64,000 nt of DNA from a virus (Duplodnaviria; Heunggongvirae; Uroviricota; Caudoviricetes), in the IMG/VR virus record IMGVR_UViG_3300001373_000069, one strand, 5' to 3'. Positions 3,181 through 50,238 of this stretch are shown one piece after another. The translations under genes and the position numbers were made by a program. The notes beneath the pieces are model-generated. The model made no database searches. It saw nothing but the letters and a program-made list of their open reading frames with translations, and was not told the origin of the DNA. The first letter of the stretch is position 1, and every line of letters begins with the position of its first letter.

Positions 3181-4238
3181 CAGTTACCTTATACCTTTCA
3201 ATATAAGCCGGACTATCCCTTAATCTTTAAATTTCCAAAAATACCCAAATGCCTTAATAGTTTTACCATTACAGCATCTTATTATACCAGATTGTCTATT
3301 ACTAGGTAATCCAAGTTTAATAATTGCTAATGCAACAGTGTCGAAAGCCTCGACAAATCCATTTTCATCAGATTGAATCACTCCAGGATATTTAGACATA
3401 CCTTTATTAAAAGGTATTCTACCCTTAAGTCTACTCTTTTGTTCTTCTGTAAATAGTCTTCCACTACTAGCTTTAGATAATTTTAGTTTTGTATCTTTAC
3501 TATGCTTCTTACCTTTCATAGGATGTATAGCACCTGGTTTATTCAACCAGTGACCATTTAAACCAACAGACTCTCTCCAACTATCAATTTGATGCTCGGT
3601 ACGTTTTCTACCTAAAGCATTATTTGATAATTTTAACCTAACTATTGACTTATTGGATTCTGATAATCCTGAAAAGGTGTCACCGCCATCTCCTCCCATA
3701 GTCATATTAGTTAAAGAAAACCCCCACTGAATCAATTGACTGATCCAATATATTTCTAATTCATAAGCATCTTGTTTAGTTTCACAACTATCAAGTTCTT
3801 TTATTAGAGGTTCTAATCCTTTGCTTCTTAATGACTTAATCCAAGAGAGACGTTTATTCCATTTTCTAGTTTCTTTTTCAGCCTCATCCAAGTTCTTTAG
3901 ATGACCGTAAAGTCTTTTTGATAAAGACTTCTTAGTATACCCTACATATCTAACCTCATTAGATATAGGGTCTTCAAGTGTATAAATGTAATATGTTTCC
4001 ATAGTACTATTATAGTAAAAACTAGTTGCATAATCATAGATATAATAAAGATTCCCCCATTATAGTCTCTGAACCTTGAACTCTTTAAAGTTCCTTGGCT
4101 GCGGATTATCCAATTCAACATCTTGTTACCATACCATAATGATTAGTTATGCCGCGTATAGTTCGCACTATACGTTTGGTAATGTTGACTTAAGGAAGTC
4201 CCCGCAATTTAGAGGGTTTTATAAGGCCCATAGTATTA
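3181..4238 (-). other. Group I intron (approx. 1058 nt) interrupting the helicase gene, carrying a GIY-YIG HEG
   Basis: The 5' exon ends in U (..gct) followed by an in-frame stop. The intron's 3' terminal base is G. The intron contains a free-standing HEG ORF and GC-richer structured-looking flanks (4003..4235). Confidence 0.6.
3220..4002 (-). CDS. GIY-YIG homing endonuclease (intron-encoded)
   Basis: N-terminal 'YYIYTLEDPISNEVRYVGYTKKSLSKRLYGH' GIY-YIG motif. Confidence 0.85.
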   Translation of the reverse strand: METYYIYTLEDPISNEVRYVGYTKKSLSKRLYGHLKNLDEAEKETRKWNKRLSWIKSLRSKGLEPLIKELDSCETKQDAYELEIYWISQLIQWGFSLTNMTMGGDGGDTFSGLSESNKSIVRLKLSNNALGRKRTEHQIDSWRESVGLNGHWLNKPGAIHPMKGKKHSKDTKLKLSKASSGRLFTEEQKSRLKGRIPFNKGMSKYPGVIQSDENGFVEAFDTVALAIIKLGLPSNRQSGIIRCCNGKTIKAFGYFWKFKD

Positions 4239-5375
4239 AGCCTTGTACAGCGATGTAGCATAGGCATAATCAAACACAGCAAACGACTGTAAGAATTGAT
4301 TGTAGCGGCTCCATTGACCATATTCGGCGGCCTCCTTGTAACGTTGTCTACGAACTATCTCGTAAGCAGTCTGAGCTTCCTCTGTGTTCATCACGACTGG
4401 TATTCCGGTAGCTGTAGTTGGTACATTATCCAGGGCTAGATATGCACATGGTATACCAAAGGGACCTAACTGATAAGCTATCCCAGTAACTACCGAAATC
4501 TGACCATTATGGATTATAGGAGATCTGTTAACTGAAAATCCTCCTCGAGATATGATTATCTCATTTCTTTCGAATTGATGGGAGTTCTTTCCGTATATTC
4601 TCTCTCTTACCCCAGTATTTAAAAGCTCAATAGTCGAGTTCTTATAGGCTAGTATACGAGTATGATTCTTATCGTTACGATTACTAATTATATCATTAGC
4701 GGCCCGATCAACAGTACAATGAATATCATTCATAAATCTATAACCGGTATCACCTCTCATACAATCCTGTCTACCATACTCTTCTTCGAGAATATACTTA
4801 TTGAACGGTAGATCTTTATTGATGTTATCGATCTCTTGTCTAATCCTGACAGCTAATTCACCGATCGGTCCTTCGAATCGTTGCGAAGTAGTCAACTCAG
4901 CATCTATTCTATCAAATTCTTGTTTTACTGGAGGTAATTGAAATGGGTCGCCAACCACAATTAAGTGAATATCACGAATACTAACCTCGTGCAGAATTGC
5001 GTCAACCAGCGGATCATCTATCATTGATGCCTCATCTATCAAAAGAATCTCAGTACCATCAATTTTCATGTTACCGTTCTTATTTCTTTTAAATGAGATT
5101 TCTTCCGAGGAGTCGTCCATTTGCATGCCAAGTAGTTGTGCTATTGTAAAACTAGTTCCAATAGACTGCTTCAATACTTCTTTAGCAGAGTGTGCTATGG
5201 TTCCACCAACTACTTTCCTTTTCTCGTGCTGCAAAGCCTCTTTTAACATAAAAGTCTTACCACTACCAGGAGGCCCCGATAATACAAAGAACTCGTTTGC
5301 TTGAGCAGGTTTACTTAAGAAATCACGGATTCCTTCGGCAGCTACTTTCTGTTCCTGAGTTAATGTTGATATCAT
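4239..5375 (-). CDS. SF1 Dda/RecD-like DNA helicase, 5' exon
   Basis: Walker A 'GPPGSGKT', motif II 'LLIDEASMI', motif III 'VVGDPFQLPPV'; ORF stops abruptly inside motif V (..FDYAYATSLYKA*). Confidence 0.8.
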
Positions 5376-6445: not shown

Positions 6446-7547
6446 TGATTATAAAGAATAATTGAGACTCGACCTCACACCCAAGTTCACCTACAATTCT
6501 ATACCTTAGCGAATGTTCAAGTGTAGAACATCGGTTTATAAAGGTTAGTATCTCTGTAGTATTCTCTTGATGTTTAGAAGTAACCTCTGTTAGTTTGCTT
6601 ACAATGAAATTGATTTCAGCTAAGGCACTAGTAATAGCCCTAATGGTTGTAAGAGGTTTACTTTCCAAATTATCGGCCCATTTATTAGCTCGATCTAGTA
6701 CAGCTTTTATCCTGAATCTCTCTGTTACAAAAGAACAATACATTAAGACTTCAGTCATATCAGCAGTATCTAACCCATCAACATATTGAAGAACACGTAT
6801 ATCCTTATGAACATCAAGAAGATCAGAAGCATCCTTGATAACCCTTGGGGATACCAAATCAATAGTCCTGGCTGCAGTTTCTGCTAATACATCATAGAGA
6901 AGGCTCTGAGCATCTACTTGGTCTGGTTTAACCACCTTTAGGAAATCTAAATAAGCTTCATGAGAATAATGATCCCACATTACTTTAATTCTAATAGGGA
7001 ATCTTTCCTTATAAAAAGCAGCACTAGAATCATCAATACTGACATCTTCTGGGCTCTTGTTGGTGCATATAATAACAGAACTTATTAACGATTCGGTGAA
7101 CCTACCATTCTGTCTTAATCCGCCTTCGGTTAAGATATCCTTCAATGCAGCAGCAGTAGATGGTCTGGCATCCAGAAATTCTTCAAGAATCAATACTCCA
7201 GGACTACTAAATACACTACGATCAAACGCTGTTTCATATACAGAGGTTTCAGTCAATTTCTTGATGTTTGGTATACCAAGTAAAGCCTCGACTTCCATAT
7301 CTTCATAACCAACAATTGTTGGGGCTGGTATACTAACATAGTCAAGAAAAGCCTTTACAATTTGTGATTTACCAAATCCTCCTGGTCCATACAGTATAAC
7401 ATTCTTACCAGTTGTAGTACCGAGGTATAATGCCTCTATAACCTTGTTCATATTGTAGAAACGTTTACTAAGTGCTTCTTGAATAGATTGTAGTGAATGA
7501 GATAATATTGTCTCTCTTATCGATGTTACAACTTCTGTCCTGTTCAT
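6426..7547 (-). CDS. MoxR-like AAA+ ATPase
   Basis: Walker A 'LYGPGGFGKSQIV'; paired with downstream vWA gene. Confidence 0.65.
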   Translation of the reverse strand: MNRTEVVTSIRETILSHSLQSIQEALSKRFYNMNKVIEALYLGTTTGKNVILYGPGGFGKSQIVKAFLDYVSIPAPTIVGYEDMEVEALLGIPNIKKLTETSVYETAFDRSVFSSPGVLILEEFLDARPSTAAALKDILTEGGLRQNGRFTESLISSVIICTNKSPEDVSIDDSSAAFYKERFPIRIKVMWDHYSHEAYLDFLKVVKPDQVDAQSLLYDVLAETAARTIDLVSPRVIKDASDLLDVHKDIRVLQYVDGLDTADMTEVLMYCSFVTERFRIKAVLDRANKWADNLESKPLTTIRAITSALAEINFIVSKLTEVTSKHQENTTEILTFINRCSTLEHSLRYRIVGELGCEVESQLFFIINGESSS

Positions 7548-9013: not shown

Positions 9014-10333
9014 CTAGCGACCAAACCCCATCTTTTTAACAGGTTTTTCTTCGTTCATTTTAGGATCATAATCTATATTGTATAGATTAGCTAGAGTGGT
9101 GGGAACCGTTACTCGATCAGACTTACCTAGAGCCTCTAATAATGCATTGGCTCTTTTAACCTCAAGTGGATTAAATGTATATTCAAGTTTTAACCTACCC
9201 TTCCTAAATAAAGCATCATCAAGAGATTCTTGTTTATTAACAGTAGCTATAACCTTGGTCTTTAAAATCTTACCTAAGATACCATCTGATATATTAAGGA
9301 TATTAGTTACAGCACCACCATTAGAGTGATTTCTGGTAAGTAATGCTTCCTCAGCATCTTCAAGCACAAGTATAGAATCTACTAATTGACTAGCAGCAAA
9401 TGTTAAAAAGGATGGATCAGTTAGTACCGAAGCAAATGCAGAAGGGACAAAAACAATCTTCTTACCTAGTTCCTCAGAAATATTGGTTAGATGAATAAGT
9501 AGTGATGTTTTACCCGTTCCAGGCTCACCTTTCAGTAATACCAAACCACTATCATCATTACCTAAGAAATCTATCAATTTTTCATACACATCTGCAAAGT
9601 CTTCGTTGTAGTTATGCTCAATAATATCCTTACCATAAGAACCGTTGGTTAAATAGTGTTTATTAAGAAATAAACCATTTGACGTGGATCCTAGAGTAAA
9701 TACAGCATCTTTAGTCTTGATTTTGACTTCCGGGTATTTGTATTTATCGTAATGTTTAAAAAACTTTTCAATATAAGGGTCTTCAACTGGGGTATAGATG
9801 TGAGATCCAACAATAATTGAAAACTCAGAACTCTTTGTAAAAGCAGCAATCTTTAATGATTTAGATTTATTTAGTCCTTCTTTAACAAGATCTTTTTCAC
9901 TATCATCGATATCTACTTCTTCAAAATCATCCGCATCTTTTATAACTTGGTATACATCATACTCATCAGGAGATAAATAATCACCACCAATTTTGGATTG
10001 CATAGCCATTTTAACTCTATCTTGGTTGGTATCGCCAGTAGAAACCACCAAATTAATGACCCATTTTACGCTTGGAATCACTACAATAGTATTGTTTCTA
10101 ACACTATCAATACACTCAAATATTACATAATAGGGAGTTTCCTCTTCAAATGTAGCGTCTAGGGCTTTGAAAAAATCATCCTTCTTGATATAATCAGTTG
10201 ACCTATAGTCAACAGAGAAATTAGAGGGATTAAATAAATGAGAGTATAGCAATGAAGGACTTGGTGTCTCCCCTTCTTCGGTTAATACTGAAATGGGTAT
10301 CTTACCCACAGATAATTGTTGGTTTTTCCTCAT
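9014..10333 (-). CDS. AAA+ ATPase
   Basis: Walker A 'LLKGEPGTGKTSLL', Walker B 'ILVLEDAEE', 'LDDALFRKGRL' Arg-finger-like. Confidence 0.7.
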   Translation of the reverse strand: MRKNQQLSVGKIPISVLTEEGETPSPSLLYSHLFNPSNFSVDYRSTDYIKKDDFFKALDATFEEETPYYVIFECIDSVRNNTIVVIPSVKWVINLVVSTGDTNQDRVKMAMQSKIGGDYLSPDEYDVYQVIKDADDFEEVDIDDSEKDLVKEGLNKSKSLKIAAFTKSSEFSIIVGSHIYTPVEDPYIEKFFKHYDKYKYPEVKIKTKDAVFTLGSTSNGLFLNKHYLTNGSYGKDIIEHNYNEDFADVYEKLIDFLGNDDSGLVLLKGEPGTGKTSLLIHLTNISEELGKKIVFVPSAFASVLTDPSFLTFAASQLVDSILVLEDAEEALLTRNHSNGGAVTNILNISDGILGKILKTKVIATVNKQESLDDALFRKGRLKLEYTFNPLEVKRANALLEALGKSDRVTVPTTLANLYNIDYDPKMNEEKPVKKMGFGR

Positions 10334-10336
10334 AGA

Positions 10337-10372
10337 TAAAATAAAAAGGGCTAAGGATTTCTCCCTAGCCCC
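10337..10372 (-). terminator. Rho-independent terminator (GGGCTAGGGAGAAATCCTTAGCCC + U-run)
   Basis: Inverted repeat 10348..10371 with A-run 10337..10346 on the plus strand; lies downstream of minus gene 10384..11580. Confidence 0.55.
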
Positions 10373-10383
10373 TATTTGAAATA

Positions 10384-11580
10384 CTAAAGTCCTAATTCTT
10401 CAGCTTCAGTAGCAACTTGTTTAGCAAGTTTATTACTGTTAGCAACAGCTTCGGCTTTGTACGTAGCCCACTCAGCGTCTTTCATTGCTGCATATTTAGA
10501 TGAGTGATAGATTCCTTTGTTACGGCCTTCAACAGCGCCAAACACGAAATACTCACGAACACGGATTGCTCCATCGCTAGAATCACTAACATCACAAATT
10601 GCACCAATTTCAGCTGGGTCAACGAAACATTCTAATAATTGGCAATTAAGTCCTTTATAAGATGAAACATAACGCCATCCTCCTACGTGTAATCCTTTTA
10701 CACAATTGGTATAGTCATAGGTATTAACCTGAGACCATTTTTCCAATGTATGTTTCTTACCAACCTGGATAACGTGTCCAGCTACAGTACCAGATAAGAA
10801 TTCATCGCCACCGGTTCCCATTACAGGAGGTTGGAAGAATAATTCTTCAGAAAACTCTGGTAAGGTATCTTTACCTTTAGTGATAACTCCGGTCTGGAAA
10901 TTGATGGTATCATCTTCTTTACCATACAAAGGCATACGTTTTGGTTTATTGGTTTCAGCGTCGATAACCCAACCTTCGGTGATCAGTTGAGCATATTTCT
11001 TAGCCACAACAAGACCTTCCTGGGTGATAGCAACGTCATTGTAAGATGCACGTGCCTTTGCACTTTCGTAAGTGAATCCTTCTTCTTTCATTAAACGAGC
11101 AACTTCTTCGTCATCAATAATGATAGAAGTAATATAATCAGCAAATCTTCCTGCTTTATCGGCAGTAAAATTAGGATTACGCAAGAAACGAATCCATGCC
11201 TTCACGATTGGTGTTGGGTCAATTTCTTTCTCAACTGATTCGAGAATAACTGACACCAATTTAACAGGGACCGGGGTTTTAGAGACTTTCTCCACACCAT
11301 TTTCAACTACCTTCACGAAATAATAACCGGTAGTTGCATTTTTGATCAAATCAGGGCAAGCAGTTGTGATCACATCAACTTCTTTTGTTTCCAGAAGAGC
11401 AGTTGTGGCTTCAACCCAAGCTTCGTATGCGACAGTTTCTTCAATGGTTTCCAGCTCAGTTTGTTTAGCTTTCAAAGAAGTTACTAGTTCTGCACTGAAT
11501 GGTACATTGAACTTTTTACCATTTACTGACCCATTGATCAATTTACCATCTGAGTGGCTTACTACATTAAATGTTAACAT
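10384..11580 (-). CDS. hypothetical protein (398 aa)
   Basis: ORF track. Confidence 0.55.
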   Translation of the reverse strand: MLTFNVVSHSDGKLINGSVNGKKFNVPFSAELVTSLKAKQTELETIEETVAYEAWVEATTALLETKEVDVITTACPDLIKNATTGYYFVKVVENGVEKVSKTPVPVKLVSVILESVEKEIDPTPIVKAWIRFLRNPNFTADKAGRFADYITSIIIDDEEVARLMKEEGFTYESAKARASYNDVAITQEGLVVAKKYAQLITEGWVIDAETNKPKRMPLYGKEDDTINFQTGVITKGKDTLPEFSEELFFQPPVMGTGGDEFLSGTVAGHVIQVGKKHTLEKWSQVNTYDYTNCVKGLHVGGWRYVSSYKGLNCQLLECFVDPAEIGAICDVSDSSDGAIRVREYFVFGAVEGRNKGIYHSSKYAAMKDAEWATYKAEAVANSNKLAKQVATEAEELGL

Positions 11581-14574: not shown

Positions 14575-14783
14575 TTTGTTATCTTAAAGGCTCTTTATCC
14601 TTTAATTCTCATACTTTACCATAGTATGATGTTCGGACTATGTCATCACCCTAAACCAGGGTGTCGCGCGCTCGTGTCGTTTTACTGTCCGTTCTGGACT
14701 CCATACGTTAGTCTCTGCTCCTTCAATGCATTCCTGCAAAGCTTGGATCACGATTACCCTTCAAGGGAGGGCTTTCCGTGAGT

Positions 14784-15428
14784 TCACGCGATTTTAATGG
14801 GGCTTAGGATTTCATCGACTAAAGCCTTTTTTCTTTTTAAGTACCATGATGAATCAGAGTATAATAGACCAACCAGTAATTCAACATCAGTTTTTCTACG
14901 CACTCTAAGTACATATATTTTCCCCTGTTGTCTAACTGTTGAATGAATACCATAACTGTTAAAAAAGTCTTGTAGTGGTATTATTTCAGGTTCAGTAATA
15001 CACAAAGTCATATTCCAATATGGTTTTCCATCTGTAATTTGCTTTGAATAACAACCATCGCCATCTATATAACCCCTGATATAATGAATAAATAATTCTT
15101 CAGGTAAATCTAATAATACCGATTTTACACCAATATTAACTAAATCAGTATAAAGCTCTTTATTATAAGACCTCAATACTACCTTGTTATTAAATCGTTC
15201 CTCATTATTCCACACATAACTATCCTCGCTATATGATATATTAAAGAATGGAAATTCACTTTCAAATCGTTTAATAATTTCCTCATCTTTAATACTTAGT
15301 TTTAACTTACTACAACTGCTATATGCAATTTTAGAGTAATGCAAACTACCATCAGCATGAAAGAAACCTAGAAAATATGCTTTAGCTTCTGTGTCAATAT
15401 TCTTAAATTCATCATTATAAGATACCAT
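14784..15428 (-). CDS. LAGLIDADG homing endonuclease
   Basis: 'YFLGFFHADGS' and 'YIRGYIDGDGC' LAGLIDADG motifs. Confidence 0.85.
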   Translation of the reverse strand: MVSYNDEFKNIDTEAKAYFLGFFHADGSLHYSKIAYSSCSKLKLSIKDEEIIKRFESEFPFFNISYSEDSYVWNNEERFNNKVVLRSYNKELYTDLVNIGVKSVLLDLPEELFIHYIRGYIDGDGCYSKQITDGKPYWNMTLCITEPEIIPLQDFFNSYGIHSTVRQQGKIYVLRVRRKTDVELLVGLLYSDSSWYLKRKKALVDEILSPIKIA

Positions 15429-15790
15429 AACTATTTATTTGGATTAATTGTAAAATCGTACCAAATATATTATAGTTAGAAAAATTGATTGTGTTTACCC
15501 CATTTCCCCAAAGCATCTTTATTCGCACGCTTTGTAGAATACATTTTATTATTTATATAGGCTCTTTATCCTATACTTTCTACAATTTATCTTGTTATAG
15601 TTGTAGAGTAGACTATATCTTTAACTTGCAAACCGCAAGCAGTGTCCCGCTTTCGTGGAGAACTTTATAGCTTTGGCTTTACCCAGTAAGCGTCATCTCT
15701 AGTCGTTCGGCATTTACAATTATTTCTAACTGATTTAGCACGGGATTGTCCTCTTCAGGAGTTTCCCCGTTTAACGGAATTTATACTCAA

Positions 15791-16429
15791 CTATTCTATT
15801 AAATTACCTTCTTTGTTGTATACTACCCAATGAAATCCTTTACATGTTGTACTGTTGATAGAAGATCTGATAATATGTGATGCATGATTTAGTCCAAGAT
15901 CTCTGAAAGCTTGATATGGATTGTCATATGTATGCACTAAATTCCATTTAGAATCATATTTCTCGCACTTTCCATACTTACCAGTTCCTCTTCTATTTGT
16001 ATTACCAAGTTGTGCAGTTTTAGAAGATTCACTAATCTTTTTCCATACTTCTTGAGTATGTAAATGAGACTGATCTCTTAATTTTGCTTTAGCAGACATT
16101 TTGGCTTTAGTGGATTTACCAAACCTAAACCCAGTAGTTCCCAGACCAGGATAATCAGCATTATAACCATTACTAACGGTATCTAACAAATTAACCCAAT
16201 AGTACTCCATTTGTAAACAATATTCTGGGGGATAAGTCTCGAGAATCTCAAATCTAAATGATTCCTCTCCGTACTTGTTCCAAGAACGTTGTAAATGATC
16301 ATTATAATGAGTATTTGATCGTAATTTACGTCTGTGATCTGACCATCTAGAACTAAAATATCGTTGAGCTGACCCTACGTACATTTTTCCATTAACAGTA
16401 TTTGTGATAGTATATACACCTGATTTCAT
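15791..16429 (-). CDS. GIY-YIG homing endonuclease
   Basis: 'SGVYTITNTVNGKMYVGSAQRYFSSRWSDHRR'. Confidence 0.85.
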   Translation of the reverse strand: MKSGVYTITNTVNGKMYVGSAQRYFSSRWSDHRRKLRSNTHYNDHLQRSWNKYGEESFRFEILETYPPEYCLQMEYYWVNLLDTVSNGYNADYPGLGTTGFRFGKSTKAKMSAKAKLRDQSHLHTQEVWKKISESSKTAQLGNTNRRGTGKYGKCEKYDSKWNLVHTYDNPYQAFRDLGLNHASHIIRSSINSTTCKGFHWVVYNKEGNLIE

Positions 16430-29302: not shown

Positions 29303-29971
29303 TTAGTCCGTTAGAGCACCAATGAACACATCTTCAATTGAACAATTATTCATTGCTGAATAGTCTTTACAGTCGACAATATCGAACTTAGCTCCTTCAG
29401 AAGTTAAGTCATCATCAAGCTTCTGCAGAAACCTGCTAGCGTCTGAATTCTGTCCAACCTGAACAAATGTGATACCGACTTCATCACGACCCTGGATACA
29501 TTCGGTAGTCTTCTTAATTACTTCGATAACACCAAATTTATCATCTGGTTCACCATCAGTCAATACAATGATAATCATTGGTTTAACTTTGATACTGAAA
29601 TCAATAGTAAATGGTCGTTTACCAATACCAAAGAAACCACTAGAAGCTTCTTTACGACGATTTAAGAATGGCTGTAAAGCTTTCTTCAATGCATCTGTAA
29701 GGTTAGTTGTACTGCCTGGCTCCTGTGTACGGAATATCTCATCGACTTTAGCAGAAGTAACATTAGTATAATGAGTAATGGCACTATCAAATAAGATTAC
29801 ATCGATACCATCAGAGTCATATGTTTCACACTTCTGAGCAATTACTTTAGCCCATTCTTTTTCTTGGTTCCATCTAGAAAGTCCTCCTGGACAGTCTGTG
29901 AAGTTAGTACTACCACTCTTATCAATTAAGATAACGTAGTCATACTTCGTAAAATCGATTTTACTTTCCAT
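29303..29971 (-). CDS. vWA domain protein (TerY-like)
   Basis: MIDAS 'ILIDKSGSTNF' near N-terminus. Confidence 0.65.
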   Translation of the reverse strand: MESKIDFTKYDYVILIDKSGSTNFTDCPGGLSRWNQEKEWAKVIAQKCETYDSDGIDVILFDSAITHYTNVTSAKVDEIFRTQEPGSTTNLTDALKKALQPFLNRRKEASSGFFGIGKRPFTIDFSIKVKPMIIIVLTDGEPDDKFGVIEVIKKTTECIQGRDEVGITFVQVGQNSDASRFLQKLDDDLTSEGAKFDIVDCKDYSAMNNCSIEDVFIGALTD

Positions 29972-30008
29972 AATAAAAAGAAAGGCTGTATAGTTACCTA
30001 CACAGCCT
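29971..30008 (-). terminator. Rho-independent terminator (AGGCTGTGTAGGTAACTATACAGCCT + U-run) after terD
   Basis: Inverted repeat 29984..30007 and plus-strand A-run 29971..29983. Confidence 0.55.
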
Positions 30009-30035
30009 TTATTTTACATGTTTGTTAGCCCGGTA

Positions 30036-30635
30036 CTAAATGTACAGAGCAGCAATTTCGTTGATGTTACCATTTTTACCTTCACCGATAGCCTGGAATT
30101 TCCATTCACCATCTTTCAGATACAATTTACCCATAACCATTCCGTTGAATGCGGAGTAGTCTTCAGATAGGTCGAATTTCATGATTTCAGCTTTGGTATC
30201 CCAATCATAAACACGCACGAATGCATTGTTTACCTGACCAAAGTTCTGATTTCCACGATCTTTTGCTTGGTAGATGTTAACACAGATAATGATCTGATCA
30301 ACACCGGCAGCCAATTTTGCAAAGTCAACCAAAATGGTTTCATCATCACCATCCCCTGCTCCAGTGAGGTTATCACCTGAATGAGCAATAGCTCCGGCAA
30401 GGATAGCTGGTTTACCGTCAGTTTTCGGAGATCCGAAGTAACAGATATGTCCAGGAGCATCAACCAGTTTACCACCGGTCAGTCCAAGAGCAAATCCATC
30501 AAGGTCATAGGCACTATCAGCACCACTATTAACATCCCAACCTAAACCAATTGCAGCTATTTTCAAGCCAGGGTTAGATTTTGTTAAATCAACACGTTCA
30601 CCTTTAGTAAGGTTCAAAGAAACATTCACTGTCAT
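30036..30635 (-). CDS. terD: TerD-family stress protein
   Basis: 'GERVDLTK..KIAAIGLGWDVNS..DLDGFALGLTGGKLV..HSGDNLTG' TerD domain hallmarks. Confidence 0.8.
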   Translation of the reverse strand: MTVNVSLNLTKGERVDLTKSNPGLKIAAIGLGWDVNSGADSAYDLDGFALGLTGGKLVDAPGHICYFGSPKTDGKPAILAGAIAHSGDNLTGAGDGDDETILVDFAKLAAGVDQIIICVNIYQAKDRGNQNFGQVNNAFVRVYDWDTKAEIMKFDLSEDYSAFNGMVMGKLYLKDGEWKFQAIGEGKNGNINEIAALYI

Positions 30636-31003: not shown

Positions 31004-31278
31004 AAAAATAGCATTAACATTTTCTTAGCTAACCCATATGTGGGCTCAACGTCAAATGGTGAAGGGATAAAAGCTTTTCGACCTTTATTGTGGTTATATG
31101 ATAATATAAATTCCTTACAGTATCTACGCCCAGTATTCATATCCTGAATCTCAACAGTAATTCTACCTTCATCGGGTTCCTTGATCTCTATAATAGGGTC
31201 TCTACCTATTCCATATGAATCAAAAGGATTATACCCCATCATACGCCGGCGCTCATAATCATCATAACTTAACGGCAT
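31000..31278 (-). CDS. hypothetical protein (92 aa)
   Basis: ORF track. Confidence 0.45.
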   Translation of the reverse strand: MPLSYDDYERRRMMGYNPFDSYGIGRDPIIEIKEPDEGRITVEIQDMNTGRRYCKEFILSYNHNKGRKAFIPSPFDVEPTYGLAKKMLMLFL

Positions 31279-31318
31279 AATACCAACTATTTACTTAATA
31301 CTAGGTTACCCCCTATAG

Positions 31319-31463
31319 ATGTACTAGAGGGACTTGAACCCCCGACCCCGCCCTCCCAGGCACGTATACTGTCAGTCTAGTCTCTTGTACTTCAAGACTT
31401 CAAACAACTTATCGTCGACGGTGGTGTTTTAACCACTACTCTAACCAACTGAGCTATAGTACA
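31319..31463 (-). ncRNA. tRNA-like element (145 nt): tRNA-Ile paralogue with ~65-nt insertion between anticodon arm and T-arm, and a non-canonical (6- or 8-nt) anticodon loop
   Basis: Perfect 7-bp acceptor TGTACTA/TAGTACA. D-arm is TAGCTCAGTTGGTTAGAGT. The 24-nt T-arm segment gagggacttgaacccccgaccccg is identical to tRNA-Ile at 36038..36061. Anticodon region is GTGGT-TAAAAC-ACCAC, followed by CGTCGACGATAAG..GGGAGGGC before the T stem. Confidence 0.55.
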
Positions 31464-31467
31464 TTTG

Positions 31468-31540
31468 ATGTGATGGTGGGATTCGAACCCACGGCATACC
31501 CCGGGTTAGGGAGCTGCTCTACCAACTGAGCTACATCACA
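31468..31540 (-). tRNA. tRNA (73 nt), anticodon loop CUAACCC: formal anticodon AAC (Val) with C37; assignment uncertain
   Basis: Acceptor TGTGATG/CATCACA, D-arm TAGCTCAGTTGGTAGAGC, T-arm GTGGGTTCGAATCCCAC. Confidence 0.65.
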
Positions 31541-31550
31541 AACATTATTT

Positions 31551-32429
31551 TTACTTCAAATTGATCATTGGAATACTGCTACCAGTAACCTGAGGTAGAT
31601 GACCATCCCATTGTAGAATTTTCTGATACTCAATAAGAGCAGGAGTAATAGCAGCAGCCTTCAACCTATTAGCTTTAGATTCAGCAGTAGCAGCAATGGT
31701 AAGAGCATCGGCTTCTCCCTGAGCAACAGCAACTTTCTTAGCAGCTTCGGCTTCGGTGGCTCTCAACTCATTCTCACGTTGTTGGGCAATTTGTGTAGCT
31801 TCGATCTTAGAATTAATAGCTTTCTTAACCGATTCCGGTACTTTGATACGACCGATCCAGTAGATTTCTTCAATAATAATTCCAAGAGGCTCACATTGTG
31901 CAATCACATTCTTTTTAATAGTAGACATTAACCCTGTTTTACCTGCTCCATAAATATCAGCTACATCCATAGTGGAAGACGCATTCACAAGAGCATTTCT
32001 AACCATATTCCGCAAATAGATATGAGTAACTTCATCTAATCCTTTCTGATATTTCTGAAAGATTACATCTGCTTTATCCGGTTGTATATGATATGTAATA
32101 CCAAGATCAGCATTTAACTCCAAACCCTGAATATCCTGAAAATTAAAGGACTCATCATTAGGACTACCTTCAGTTGAATCTGATGTCCATACATAGTTCT
32201 GTGTAAACGTTGGAAACGCATATAAAGTGGTATTAATACCAACAGTATAACGCCCTGGAGTCAACTCAACAGTATTAACACCTTTGTTCGAACCGAATTT
32301 GGTTACTTTGACGGCAACCGTACCCGGCTCAACGTCTTTAATTTTACATGACGAAAACATAATTGCCCCAAGTAGGACAAACAAGATAACATTTAATTTA
32401 CTTCTCATTTTAGTACAACTGTTTAACAA
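31551..32429 (-). CDS. SPFH/band-7 (prohibitin/HflK-like) domain lipoprotein
   Basis: Lipobox-like 'MFSSC'; SPFH core and C-terminal coiled region 'AQQRENELRATEAEAAKKVAVAQGEADA'. Confidence 0.65.
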   Translation of the reverse strand: MLNSCTKMRSKLNVILFVLLGAIMFSSCKIKDVEPGTVAVKVTKFGSNKGVNTVELTPGRYTVGINTTLYAFPTFTQNYVWTSDSTEGSPNDESFNFQDIQGLELNADLGITYHIQPDKADVIFQKYQKGLDEVTHIYLRNMVRNALVNASSTMDVADIYGAGKTGLMSTIKKNVIAQCEPLGIIIEEIYWIGRIKVPESVKKAINSKIEATQIAQQRENELRATEAEAAKKVAVAQGEADALTIAATAESKANRLKAAAITPALIEYQKILQWDGHLPQVTGSSIPMINLK

Positions 32430-32607: not shown

Positions 32608-32709
32608 TTTATATTTGTATTAAATGGTTTCAAGGGAGAAAGGTATCGAGACTCATTTCCGCGACGGTCTCTGTTGGATATCTCCGCTTTCGTATAATAC
32701 CTTTCTTTG

Positions 32710-32781
32710 TGGGGATGATGGGATTCGAACCCAAGCCTCCGAGCTTTTAGACCCGGTATTCAACCGCCGAACTGCGCCCCC
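32710..32781 (-). tRNA. tRNA-like gene (72 nt) with apparent 8-nt anticodon loop UCUAAAAG (contains CUA/UAA triplets); anticodon undetermined
   Basis: Acceptor GGGGGCG/CATCCCC (one mismatch), D-arm GTTC-GGCGGTT-GAAT, anticodon stem CCGGG/CTCGG, T-arm TGGGTTCGAATCCCA. Confidence 0.5.
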
Positions 32782-33380: not shown

Positions 33381-34456
33381 AAACGTCTGATTATTAATTA
33401 CTTAGTGGAGATGGCGGGAATCGCCTTAAAAAATAATTTCGCACAGTTCCATATTTATTATTATAATGCTATTATACATTATAAAACATAAAGATATGAA
33501 AACAATTAATTGTACATGTAACTACTGTAATAAATCTGATGAAGAACACATTAACACATAACCAAACAGTAGAATTTTTACAAGAAATAGCAAAATTAAT
33601 AAATACTTAACTTTCGTTAAGGGTTGGACTATATCATCACCCGTTCTGGGTGTCGGATGCTCTAGGCTCACCTTAGTGTCCTTAGTCTCTGAACCTTCCT
33701 CATTCTTCCATGAGGCTCGGCTGCTGATTGACATGTAAATTAAATAGCGTTCAGTATGTACTGCTTCACTTTAATGGGCTCTACATAGTCCCAACTATTT
33801 AATTTATTTAGCTTTCCAGCAATTCTTCCAATTATTTAACTGAGTATTCCTACTCAGTGGGTCCGATTCCTTTTAAACCCGCGTCCAAACATCCGGTAAT
33901 ATTAGTGCTACTTACGTGCGTAGCTGGAATGACGTCCAGCACCTAGGACCAACTGTTTACAGCTGGAGCTCCACCACCTTATTTTGAGAAAACAAGGAAA
34001 ACAACTTGCTGATTTTCTGTTTCTAGGATCACAGCTACCCAATCGCCATATTAAGCTGCAAGAGCCGTAGCGAAAGACATTACGCGAACGTTGTCCTCTA
34101 TAGTTCGATGGACTACCATCATCTTGCACGGACTAATACCCACTGACAATGCTGTCAAAACCAGTCATCCCCGATTATTATTTCATTCGATATAATCCAT
34201 AACAGAGCCACATAATAACTGAAAATTCAACATCTTTTGTTGTAATTAATTCAACGATAGTTATTAGTGTAATACAGAACATAGCAGGATGTTTTATGAA
34301 TACTTCTTTCATTCGATATCAATTTGAATAAACGACATTGTTAGAAAAGATACACCAGTACAAAATGCAATGACTTTGATTGGTTCAGTAGAGGGATATA
34401 GATCAGGGTGCATAATAGAGAATGCTATGAAAAGCATACCCACAACAATACCCCAT

Positions 34457-35713: not shown

Positions 35714-35789
35714 ATTACTAGTAGTGGCAAACGGATTTGAACCGCTGACCTCCGATCACCTCCTGACCGACGCTCTAACCGTTGAGCTA
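35714..35789 (-). tRNA. tRNA-like gene (76 nt) with non-canonical anticodon arm; loop region reads CAGGAGGUGAUC (11-nt perfect Shine-Dalgarno / complement of 16S 3' end GAUCACCUCCU)
   Basis: Acceptor TGTGGTG/TGCCACT (1:72 mismatch), canonical D-arm TAGCTCAACGGTTAGAGC, T-arm AGCGGTTCAAATCCGTT. Only 9-nt-loop (TCGGT/ATCGG) or U33-less 7-nt-loop pairings are possible. Confidence 0.5.
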
Positions 35790-36029
35790 CACCACAATAT
35801 GTCTTTACCTATACAGTTCTAAGCCTGTAATATTAAACCTCAAGGGAACACTGGAATTGACACCAGTTACGCAGATTCCTCCACGATGGACTACCTTAAG
35901 CCTTTTTGATCTAACAACCTCAACAAACAGCGTTCCCTTAGAAGAACTACAAGTTGCGTTTGTAAGTGCTCCGCCGTATGGGTGTCAATCCACCGATCTT
36001 CCTTGTTGCTTGTTTATGGTAGGTAAAAG

Positions 36030-36103
36030 TTGAGAGTGAGGGACTTGAACCCCCGACCCCGAAAGTATCAGTTTCGTGCTCTAACCAACTGAGCTAACTC
36101 TCA
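36030..36103 (-). tRNA. tRNA-Ile (GAT)
   Basis: Acceptor TGAGAGT/ACTCTCA, anticodon stem CGAAA/TTTCG, loop CUGAUAC. Confidence 0.85.
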
Positions 36104-37409: not shown

Positions 37410-37430
37410 ATGATTTAATTTATTAATTAG

Positions 37431-37502
37431 TAAGCAGGGAAGGATTCGAACCTTCGCTATTCATTCCACAGCCATGCGTGTCTACCACTGCACCACCTGC
37501 TC
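37431..37502 (-). tRNA. tRNA-like gene or pseudogene (72 nt): good acceptor, D- and T-arms but no base-paired anticodon stem
   Basis: Acceptor GAGCAGG/CCTGCTT, T-arm GAAGGTTCGAATCCTTC. Positions 27-43 (CATGGCTGTGGAATGAA) have no complementary 5-mers. Confidence 0.4.
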
Positions 37503-48942: not shown

Positions 48943-50238
48943 AGGCGCACTTCAACAAGTAACTATTAGGTCGACACGAAAAAAGCAAATCCCAAAAGGA
49001 CCAACTAACCAACGCAACTCACTCATCATACCAATACTAACCTTAAGGTGATTGATACAGACAGCAAGTAAATGTTTTACACCCTCACCCATAACCATAC
49101 TTAGTGCTCTGAGCATCCCTAAGGACTCTAAACTAAGTGATCCATACTCACAATGGTATGATTAATTATGGTATTACTCCCGGTTCTTTAACCCTAAGGC
49201 CCGATTTGTAATAATCATTTACATGAGTTCAGGTGATCTGTGCTGGTACTAGGAGACGACTCCCCATACAGACAGCAATCAAATATCGTAGACTCTCGTA
49301 GCGAGAGAATAATGTGTGTAGTCATTGGCACTCACTAGTACGTCGACCCAACAGCATCAGAGAATCACTCCTCTAACACCGTGTGGATCAACTACTAACA
49401 CATCGCATCGGATGCATTAATACTATAACATTTAAAAGTATGAGCCCAAATAAAAAAGCCAACCACCCAATTGCGCGAGGGTAGCTGGCTCAAAAACAAT
49501 TAATCAATTAACCAAAAATCACACTATGAAGACTCCAACTCTTGACAAAGCTGTACCGTTTGATTCACTCCGGACCGGTTGTCCGTGTCATGGTTAGTTT
49601 TATATTATCCTTACCAATGATGTCGTCACACACCATTACTCCTGCTCAAGAGTATTCAAAGAATAATACGCCGTGGTATACGCTACCGATCTAATCCCAC
49701 TAACTCTATTAATAGAGAAGGAGATATGTCGTGTGCTTGTATTTCGGTCATGTCAATGGTATTCCTGCCCATTAAGCATATGTTACAACGTTGGAATGTC
49801 TTATTAGGACTCGTTGTTGGTTATGGCATGTCGTAGTCTACCATACTACCACACGTTTACCTGATTTTATAGTCTGCACTAACTTGTTCTTATCCAAGCG
49901 ATTAGGATTCCATAATGATAGTATTGATCGCATTTACTAACTATCATAAGAACACAGTAGCCCCACAGGTTTGTCACGGTTTATGATCCGTAAAGTTGAG
50001 GTTCCGCCACCTCCGTCCTACCATTAAGTTATATCTAACGGTAGCAAACTTATCTCGACGTTTTATTTGTGTATCCGAGAATGCTTGAACTGGGTCATCT
50101 AGTTAGGATACCCGTTGTTCAGTAATCTTTATATGATAGCAATAGCCTCATTACAATGATTAGTAATTAATAAAATTAGAACTCAAGAAAGGGGACTACA
50201 CGAATGCAATCCCCTATCAAAGTCTTTGTGCCCGGATC

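Follow-up and report, generated by a model that had tools for sequence, protein, structure and literature searches.

The DNA analysed here, referred to as the window, is a 64,000-nucleotide (nt) stretch from an uncultured tailed phage (IMG/VR record IMGVR_UViG_3300001373_000069) that has no close relative among deposited phages. At positions 31319..31463 of its minus strand lies a transfer RNA (tRNA)-shaped gene with a large insert, the element of this study. The genes surrounding it are all on the same strand. Its upstream tandem partner is a tRNA-Val gene, whose start lies ~10 nt past the stop codon of the preceding SPFH lipoprotein gene; the element itself ends 40 nt ahead of an open reading frame (ORF) of 92 amino acids (aa), and no promoter or terminator was predicted in or beside it. 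The initial annotation had placed the element 6.4 kb from a Ro60 gene. Distance and strand are correct, the gene lying downstream in the direction of transcription, but its product matches the Pfam domains DUF2828 and DUF7788 and gave no TROVE match in Pfam. No sequence match to it was found in PDB, and a TROVE annotation occurs in none of the 120 listed homologues. Homologues exist in 661 deposited phage records, some of them annotated as Ro-like, and those of mycobacteriophages (27% identity) carry the name “Ro-like RNA binding protein”. The protein is called Ro-like below, and contigs of relative phages fetched for comparison are designated by L and a number.

The outer parts of the element form an intact tRNA body (Table 1). 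The Rfam tRNA model (gathering cut-off 29 bits) matches it end to end and treats the extra sequence as an insertion after a hairpin, GUGGU-UAAAAC-ACCAC, whereas ARAGORN misses the element in default mode and detects it in intron mode only. All 16 pairs of the acceptor stem, D-arm and T-arm are formed, in agreement with the perfect 7-bp acceptor stem and canonical D-arm first described; U8 and A9 stand between acceptor stem and D-arm, A26 follows the D-arm and a variable loop, GGUC, precedes the T-arm. The loop of the hairpin, reported as 6 or 8 nt, indeed has 6 nt and becomes 8 nt with the U-A pair open. BLAST recovered the reported 24-nt identity with a tRNA-Ile gene, which comprises the T-arm and the preceding variable loop (36038..36061), and a further 18 nt of the D-arm are identical to the same gene (36079..36096). 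The description as a tRNA-Ile paralogue is therefore right for the D- and T-arms but not for the rest, as the acceptor stem resembles that of the neighbouring tRNA-Val family and a relic anticodon loop is Pro-like.

The insert is longer than the ~65 nt originally given, amounting to ~72–77 nt by choice of the variable-loop start. At its 3' end is a feature that the first reading had not noted, a second, canonical-looking anticodon loop followed by a 3' stem strand. The same position is occupied by CUGUCAC and GCCGG in a homologue (L040:347-467) and by CGUGGAG and UCCGG in an uninterrupted gene at the same locus of L065. Using this relic loop, the intron mode of ARAGORN calls a tRNA-Pro(GGG) that is interrupted past ..UGGUU by an intron of 71 nt. 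The anticodon stem implied by this splice consists of U.G, a G/G mismatch, G-C, U.G and U.G, and no complement to GGCGG was found elsewhere in the 145-nt RNA. Of the features of a canonical decoder, the element has the acceptor/D/T cloverleaf and the Rfam score; it lacks a 7-nt loop on a 5-bp stem with U33 and a purine at position 37, and a length of ~70–95 nt. Because no splicing register restores the anticodon stem, the element as read from its sequence cannot be a normal decoder, either unspliced or after any splicing. The possibility that removal of the insert leaves a standard tRNA, raised in the initial annotation, thus fails on a spliced anticodon stem that is not credible.

Two origins of the inserted sequence were considered and set aside. 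GUGGC-UUGAAAC-ACCAC, the Phe(GAA) arm in a tRNA of a Pseudomonas phage, is similar to the hairpin GUGGU-UAAAAC-ACCAC, whose derivation from a tRNA-Phe anticodon arm is possible, but the match may be chance. A decayed head-to-tail tRNA dimer would make the inner 61 nt collinear with T-loop, 3' acceptor strand, 5' acceptor strand and D-arm, a correspondence that is not significant (p ~0.1–0.26). Antisense targets of the insert of at least 11–12 nt were not found within the window.

Table 1. Positions of the element, its parts and the related features discussed in the text.
Feature	Position	Strand	Basis or remark
tRNA-shaped gene, whole, 145 nt	31319..31463	-	Rfam tRNA (RF00005), 37.6 bits, model positions 1-71
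Acceptor stem, 5' strand UGUACUA	31457..31463	-	7/7 Watson-Crick with 31320..31326
D-arm GCUC-AGUUGGUUA-GAGU; A14, G18, G19 and A21 present	31438..31454	-	direct reading, Rfam
Hairpin GUGGU-UAAAAC-ACCAC	31421..31436	-	anticodon arm of Infernal; loop 6 nt
Insert core, 61 nt	31360..31420	-	between hairpin and relic anticodon loop
16-nt stretch GAUAAGUUGUUUGAAG	31398..31413	-	BLAST; equals 21410..21425 in NAMPT-like ORF, same strand
Hairpin UCUUG-AAGUA-CAAGA, candidate counterpart of family hairpin	31383..31397	-	minimum free energy structure; architecture as in L093:741-861
UAGACUG and ACAGUAU, degenerate family motif (A/U)CAGCA(A/U)	31366..31379	-	sequence reading
Relic anticodon loop CUGGGAG (Pro-GGG-like) and 3' stem strand GGCGG	31348..31359	-	ARAGORN -i
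T-arm GGGGG-UUCAAGU-CCCUC	31327..31343	-	Rfam, BLAST
Acceptor stem, 3' strand UAGUACA	31320..31326	-	direct reading
Discriminator U	31319	-	no CCA encoded
tRNA-Val(AAC) with C37, upstream tandem partner	31467..31540	-	3-4 nt spacer to element; ARAGORN/Rfam scans
DUF2828/DUF7788 “Ro-like” RNA-binding protein gene, 528 aa	23297..24883	-	Pfam DUF2828 + DUF7788; phrog_850 “RNA-binding protein”
Further insert-bearing gene	L087:2291-2424		stem scan
Further insert-bearing gene	L087:5272-5389		stem scan
Further insert-bearing gene	L088:599-741		stem scan
Further insert-bearing gene	L088:3687-3807		Rfam tRNA 41.8 bits
Further insert-bearing gene	L093:518-642
Further insert-bearing gene	L093: ~646-738
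Further insert-bearing gene	L093:741-861
Regions with helix and ACAGCAA(A/U)U repeats	L089:6441-6820; L090:6916-7308; L092:7780-7960; L091:7792-7961; L093:400-1040
DUF2828 gene beside tRNA cluster	L091:5519-7791; L092:6880-7304; L089:3744-3827; L093:3009-4807

A homologue of the element with an insert of its own is present in a relative phage (L040:347-467; 121 nt, Rfam tRNA 42.9 bits) and shares UAGCUCAGUUGGUUAGAGUA with it. The “intron” that ARAGORN proposes for this gene is at the same tRNA position as in the window; both “introns” start with A[A/C]AAC and end with GC, and the L040 sequence continues with its canonical-looking loop and GCCGG strand, leading to a call of tRNA-Asp(GUC). The two inserts align over RNA positions 75–101 (UACAA-GAGACUAGACUGAC-AGUAUACG in the window, UACAACGAG--UAUACUGCCAAGUAUACG in L040) with a score of 29 compared to 15.8 ± 3.2 for shuffled sequences (p ~0.004). 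A comparison of the two genes shows no broken pair, while four pairs, three in the acceptor stem and one in the T stem, differ in both partners, which is covariation of the kind sought in homologous phages. As recombination via the conserved D- and T-arm flanks could have carried the insert from one tRNA backbone to another, the compensated pairs are not strict proof of selection after insertion. The same contig contains a second, possible tRNA-shaped gene of 204 nt that Rfam does not detect (L040:1744-1947), with a fully paired acceptor stem (7/7, GGUGGUA/UACCACC), a D-like arm, a T-arm, a near-intact anticodon arm GUGU-CUGAUCA-ACAC and an unrelated insert of ~115 nt after the D-arm.

Relatives found through homologues of the DUF2828 protein (L087, 53% identity; L088, 50%; L093, 49%) extend this pair of genes to a family. 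Seven further insert-bearing genes were identified, whose tRNA bodies are of several kinds (class II Leu-like, Glu-like and Ile/Phe-like). An intact acceptor stem and T-arm, together with an insert of >30 nt placed within the anticodon loop or next to it, are found in the window, L040, L087, L088 and L093 alike. In the insert-bearing relatives tested by stem scan, the acceptor and T stems are all perfect. The inserts have a common plan: an A-rich start, a 5–8 bp hairpin of variable sequence, and (A/U)CAGCA(A/U) 0–4 nt later. Most of them share the hairpin and CAGCA, L093:741-861 having the variant CAACA, and L040:347-467 fits the plan with GAGUAUAC-UGCCAA-GUAUACGCUC followed by AGCAAU. The hairpins with a GUAA loop (AAUCUU/AGGAUU, GUUUCU/AGAAAC and CUAUCU/AGAUAG) keep their pairing while their sequence differs, and another family hairpin reads AUAUACCU-GCUAAUU-AGGUAUAU; this covariation across the family is a direct reading of the sequences only. 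A hairpin of at least 6 bp with CAGCA and a T-loop within 130 nt occurs in family genes only, in a scan of 640 kb on both strands that did not include L093. Pattern scans of IMG/VR, exact and gapped, for the hairpin, for D-arm and T-arm at a long gap, for the 5' junction and for the insert motif returned chance matches or ordinary tRNAs only; DNA patterns run against the genome collection gave no match, and an SPFH-based search of genome_contigs yielded cellular homologues only.

The family motif is also associated with the genes of Ro-like proteins. Within 800 nt of nine DUF2828 genes, ACAGCA[AT] occurs 15 times on the gene strand compared to 3.1 expected occurrences (P ~9e-7). Three family genes stand in tandem 185–530 nt upstream of the DUF2828 gene of L093 on the same strand, the 14 canonical tRNAs of this contig being on the opposite one, and L087:5272-5389 lies 455 nt upstream of a DUF2828 gene on the strand of that gene. 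A helix strand with ACAGCAA(A/U)U repeats is found beside the DUF2828 gene of four cultured, unrelated phages: Mycobacterium phage Whirlwind (three repeats), Leptolyngbya phage Lbo-JY46 (five), Campylobacter phage CP30A (two) and Bacillus phage PJN02 (at least one). In Whirlwind, the repeats accompany a YrlA-type succession of T-arm, acceptor hairpin and D-arm together with GUCGAAG. Rfam families other than tRNA and transfer-messenger RNA (tmRNA) were not found in the motif regions. The association makes a Y-RNA-like role for the family a serious hypothesis as far as sequence can tell. Whirlwind also has an SPFH (band-7) gene and then a tRNA just upstream of its DUF2828 gene, as in the window. 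A standard tmRNA (L087:4273-4612, 65.4 bits) lies beside the family gene and the DUF2828 gene of L087, and by this tmRNA of a relative the window phage looks bacterial.

Taken together, we tentatively favour the reading that the element is, or recently was, a tRNA-derived non-decoding RNA of the insert-bearing family and a Y-like partner of the Ro-like protein. A tRNA frame of acceptor stem, D-arm and T-arm would carry a module in or beside the anticodon loop. The element would be co-transcribed with the SPFH gene and tRNA-Val and, since its acceptor stem, T-arm and elbow are intact, would probably be cut free by ribonuclease (RNase) P and the tRNA 3'-end enzymes. The displayed module may then serve as binding site for the phage DUF2828 protein, and the resulting particle would be a functional analogue of bacterial Ro60–YrlA with opposite topology. 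In the window, the candidate module is the hairpin UCUUG-AAGUA-CAAGA, followed by UAGACUG and by ACAGUAU, which has one mismatch and a longer spacer than the family. This copy appears diverged, with a degenerate motif, an added hairpin and filler, and may be losing its function; it would be a family member that has diverged and moved elsewhere, or else one in decay. Its processing, protein binding and any activity are inferred, and such support as the reading has is indirect and comes from the family and its motif, not from the copy alone. More doubtful is the wider proposition that phage DUF2828 proteins have a dedicated, hitherto undescribed class of partner RNAs, made up of a helix with ACAGCAA behind it and encoded next to the protein gene in phages infecting Actinobacteria, Cyanobacteria, Campylobacter and Bacillus, that the module was grafted into complete tRNA frames in one uncultured clade, as a natural tRNA scaffold, and that 31319..31463 is a diverged member. 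The original suggestion of an exapted, Y-RNA-like tRNA is thus partly supported: the non-decoding character and a family whose motif is linked to DUF2828 speak for it, whereas YrlA membership and the exact family motif in the window copy were not found.

Several observations weigh against the partner-RNA reading. The exact family motif is absent from the window copy, which has ACAGUAU only; in the best alignment to L040:347-467 the CAGCAAU segment is missing from the window, and the hairpin GUGGU-UAAAAC-ACCAC is absent from the L040 gene. The succession of hairpin, UAGACUG and CAACAUA in L093:741-861 parallels the layout of the window copy, but weakly (p = 0.08). The element lies 6.4 kb from the Ro-like gene, and near the DUF2828 genes of the window and of L065 no ACAGCAA was found. 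DUF2828 genes adjoin ordinary tRNA clusters in every phage examined, which confounds the association, as proximity to tRNA-like genes may be generic, and the motif could act at the DNA level, for instance in a promoter. Internal hairpins in the insert, as claimed at the outset, are predicted, but the minimum free energy of the insert is no better than that of shuffled sequences (z = +0.18); folding of the whole 145-nt RNA shows no extra stability either (z = -0.58), which leaves the hairpins with no thermodynamic weight of their own. The 16-nt copy of coding sequence in the window-specific 5' extension of the insert suggests recently captured filler. Lastly, a window-type insert was not found in the closest relatives obtained via the SPFH protein, and two of these, L065 and L066, retain the Ro-like gene region without the insert-bearing element.

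Many of these points would also suit an inactive gene, that is, a tRNA or a former family member whose anticodon stem was destroyed by insertions and which now drifts, still transcribed with its operon but functionless. We consider this possible but on the whole doubtful. It would account for the want of any register with a usable anticodon stem, for an insert no more structured than shuffles and containing an exact 16-nt coding copy, for a family motif that is degenerate or deleted, for closest relatives without the insert (L065) or without the gene (L066), and for the high turnover of tRNA-like genes in the clade, where ~6 of 17 have non-canonical loops and some stems are decaying. Drift would, on the other hand, hardly be expected to leave all 16 acceptor, D and T pairs intact in the window, to compensate each of the four pairs that differ in L040:347-467, to preserve perfect acceptor and T stems in the stem-scanned relatives, or to leave the layout of hairpin, UAGACUG and CA..AUA in common with L093:741-861.

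The locus itself was compared in relatives fetched via the SPFH protein (L035 and L066, 85% identity; L038 and L065, 81%; L039, 75%; L040, 65%; L041, 63%; L001 and L068, 62%). L065 has a single uninterrupted Pro-like tRNA (CCGGG-CGUGGAG-UCCGG) that matches the element in its 3' half and in the flank downstream, and L066 has a Val-like gene only; the nearest genomes thus lack an insert of the window type. The gene just after SPFH, tRNA-Val in the window, forms an orthologous series (L066:10397-10469, L039:993-1064, L041:3827-3902 and L001:4884-4966) that keeps four of four stems, with 96% of cells paired and eight pairs changed on both sides. Its anticodon loops measure 7 nt with C37, 7 nt with C33, 6, 8 and 14 nt. 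A supposed tRNA-Glu with a 435-nt intron in L066 was dismissed as a poor model. Elsewhere in these contigs, L066:1499-2131 encodes a 210-aa protein with class II aminoacyl-tRNA synthetase (HisRS-like) domains near tRNA-like genes; L068, a 175-kb IMG/VR phage, has a tRNA with a CUA anticodon (amber-suppressor-like) and two tRNA-like genes with 8-nt loops, at 6734-6806, 9828-9902 and 10319-10394; and, in a further relative, a phage-encoded permuted tmRNA (63.1 bits) lies near an SPFH gene (L006:2323-2535).

Non-canonical anticodon loops are not confined to the element, and non-decoder tRNA-shaped genes are a feature of the window's clade. The window contains at least 17 tRNA-like genes, ~6 of 17 with non-canonical loops. 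One of them, 32709..32781 (minus strand), has a loop of 6 or 8 nt (UCUAAAAG) and mismatched acceptor and T stems, and the loop of its orthologue is 7 nt long in L066, 8 nt in L001 and 15 nt in L041. Others on the same strand are a Met(CAU) with C33 (35469..35543), a “Leu(GAG)” that has G33 and lacks a long variable arm (35721..35796) and a “Thr(UGU)” whose anticodon stem is poor (37430..37502).

With stems kept by compensatory change and loops of 6–14 nt in the neighbouring tRNA family, the element might instead be a processing signal of the t-element kind, its tRNA body kept for cuts by RNase P and 3' enzymes and its anticodon region unconstrained. Such cuts would release tRNA-Val with a short trailer and set the 5' end of the downstream messenger RNA. 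The position, 3–4 nt after tRNA-Val and 40 nt before an ORF with no promoter or terminator predicted nearby, would suit this role, and the T-arm fits GGTTCRANYCC (GGUUCAAGUCC), the motif of plant mitochondrial t-elements whose T-arm directs RNase P/Z cuts (PMC1920247). Nonetheless we judge it unlikely, as it leaves unexplained the hairpin–CAGCA module in the inserts of the relatives, the link of the motif to DUF2828 genes and the conservation of the anticodon stem in the neighbouring family.

It is very improbable, in our estimate, that the element works as a tRNA-Pro(GGG) after some enzyme or ribozyme has removed an intron of 71 nt that would be of a new, small and possibly mobile type. The intron-mode calls, their common position with A[A/C]AAC and GC at the ends, the canonical-looking loops that they leave and the presence of similar inserts in different tRNA frames, as expected of a mobile intron, are in its favour. 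Across the family, however, excision of the inserts leaves almost every member with a defective anticodon stem, and the resulting anticodons are at odds with the tRNA bodies, class II bodies carrying GCA or AAA, which makes the intron reading weak. No Rfam ribozyme or intron match was found in the element region at E ≤ 10, small ribozymes in the insert included. A group I intron was rejected, in accordance with the initial view that the insert is too short: 71 nt is far below the ~200 nt or more of this class, the exons give a defective stem, Intron_gpI has no match at E ≤ 10 in 31200..31600 while Rfam detects four elsewhere in the window, and all reported phage group I introns are in protein genes (PMC3984707). 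A bulge-helix-bulge was not seen on inspection of the element, and the window's ORFs of at least 130 aa (Pfam, ~40 of 53) include no RtcB, ligase or EndA/splicing endonuclease domain.

Established classes with large additions to a tRNA body do not accommodate the element either. A class II tRNA requires a variable arm of ~13–21 nt with its own stem-loop (positions 44–48), whereas here ~72 nt without a closing helix separate the hairpin from the variable loop GGUC, as the remark that the insert is too long for a variable arm had anticipated. A tmRNA was rejected on position 3–70, which is U-A and not G3.U70, and on the lack of support from ARAGORN and Rfam: tmRNA mode (-m) returned nothing for the element and the best score in the tmRNA clan was 9.4 bits (tmRNA_permuted, cut-off 47). 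Membership in the described YrlA/Y RNA family is refuted despite the tRNA-like domain, the shared strand with the Ro-like gene and a GUCGACG that is one mismatch from GNCGAAG, as the exact Ro-binding motif GNCGAAN0-1G and the permuted YrlA topology are absent from the element, whose ends form an ordinary acceptor stem, the distance of 6.4 kb exceeds the 4-kb YrlA criterion, the 4 kb on each side of the Ro-like gene contain no YrlA or Y_RNA match, and the sole match at the element (19.9 bits, cut-off 69) spans the tRNA-Val T-arm and the element D-arm, a tandem-tRNA artefact of the type that the YrlA authors filtered out (PMC4201824).

The window has further features of note. It contains four group I introns, all on the minus strand (4022..4248, 14608..14867, 15580..15842 and 33605..33884); ORFs beside three of the four encode GIY-YIG (3220..4002 and 15791..16429) and LAGLIDADG (14784..15428) proteins, and the phage encodes homing endonuclease ORFs and its own sigma factor. 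A full-length Hatchet ribozyme match lies at 49859..49997 (minus strand; 77.2 bits, gathering score 51). A Ter-type cluster at 26895..30635 (minus strand; TerC, ComF-like phosphoribosyltransferase, HAD phosphatase, VWA and TerD) is kept in L065, L066 and L088. The window's NAMPT-like gene at 21045..22447 (minus strand) appears as a pair of ORFs, of 242 aa and 209 aa; L066 has three ORFs in its place, and L065, L087 and L088 have a single gene of ~472 aa. The lower of the two window ORFs contains the 16-nt stretch also found in the insert of the element.

Ro60–Y RNA particles are conserved from bacteria to humans, and their RNA partners are known in some lineages only. The phage DUF2828 family with its 661 records has no defined RNA partner in the literature searched, in which we found no paper linking DUF2828 to one. 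If the partner-RNA reading is true, the helix–ACAGCAA units would provide a concrete, testable partner candidate for the Ro-like phage proteins, and some of the “pseudo-tRNAs” and “tRNAs with introns” in phage annotation would be accounted for. If the window copy is merely decaying, the element itself would be ordinary and the family would still be of interest.

Among known systems, tmRNA resembles the element in its acceptor/T-arm frame and in the replacement of the anticodon arm by a large functional insert; the element differs in having no G3.U70, tag ORF or pseudoknots, in its complete D-arm and in being far shorter. In engineered tRNA scaffolds, a recombinant RNA replaces the anticodon arm and the tRNA body provides processing and stability. 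The architecture, a cargo in place of the anticodon arm, is the same as here, the difference being that the scaffolds are artificial; a natural phage counterpart is not described in the literature searched. RNAC and RNAD of phage T4 are encoded within its tRNA gene cluster and processed together with the tRNAs. Like the element, they are small stable phage RNAs of unclear role (PMC9697503), but no link to a Ro-like protein is known for them. Plant mitochondrial t-elements share the non-canonical tRNA-like structure between genes, the T-arm motif and the cuts by RNase P/Z (PMC1920247), but belong to another system and have neither a conserved cargo motif nor a linked RNA-binding protein. YrlA with Ro60 (Rsr) is a further parallel: both RNAs mimic tRNA and lie near the gene of a Ro-type protein on the same strand, in phages too, and in both a tRNA-like domain that tRNA enzymes recognise is joined to a short conserved motif beside a helix (Chen et al. 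2014, PMC4201824). In YrlA, however, the ends form the Ro-binding stem at the site of the anticodon stem, and the acceptor is closed into a hairpin. In the present case the protein is DUF2828/DUF7788 without a TROVE match, the YrlA model does not match, the motif is ACAGCA instead of GNCGAAN0-1G, and the ends form the acceptor stem with the module in the anticodon region, an arrangement that, if the reading is true, would represent a second, independent route of joining tRNA mimicry to a Ro-type protein.

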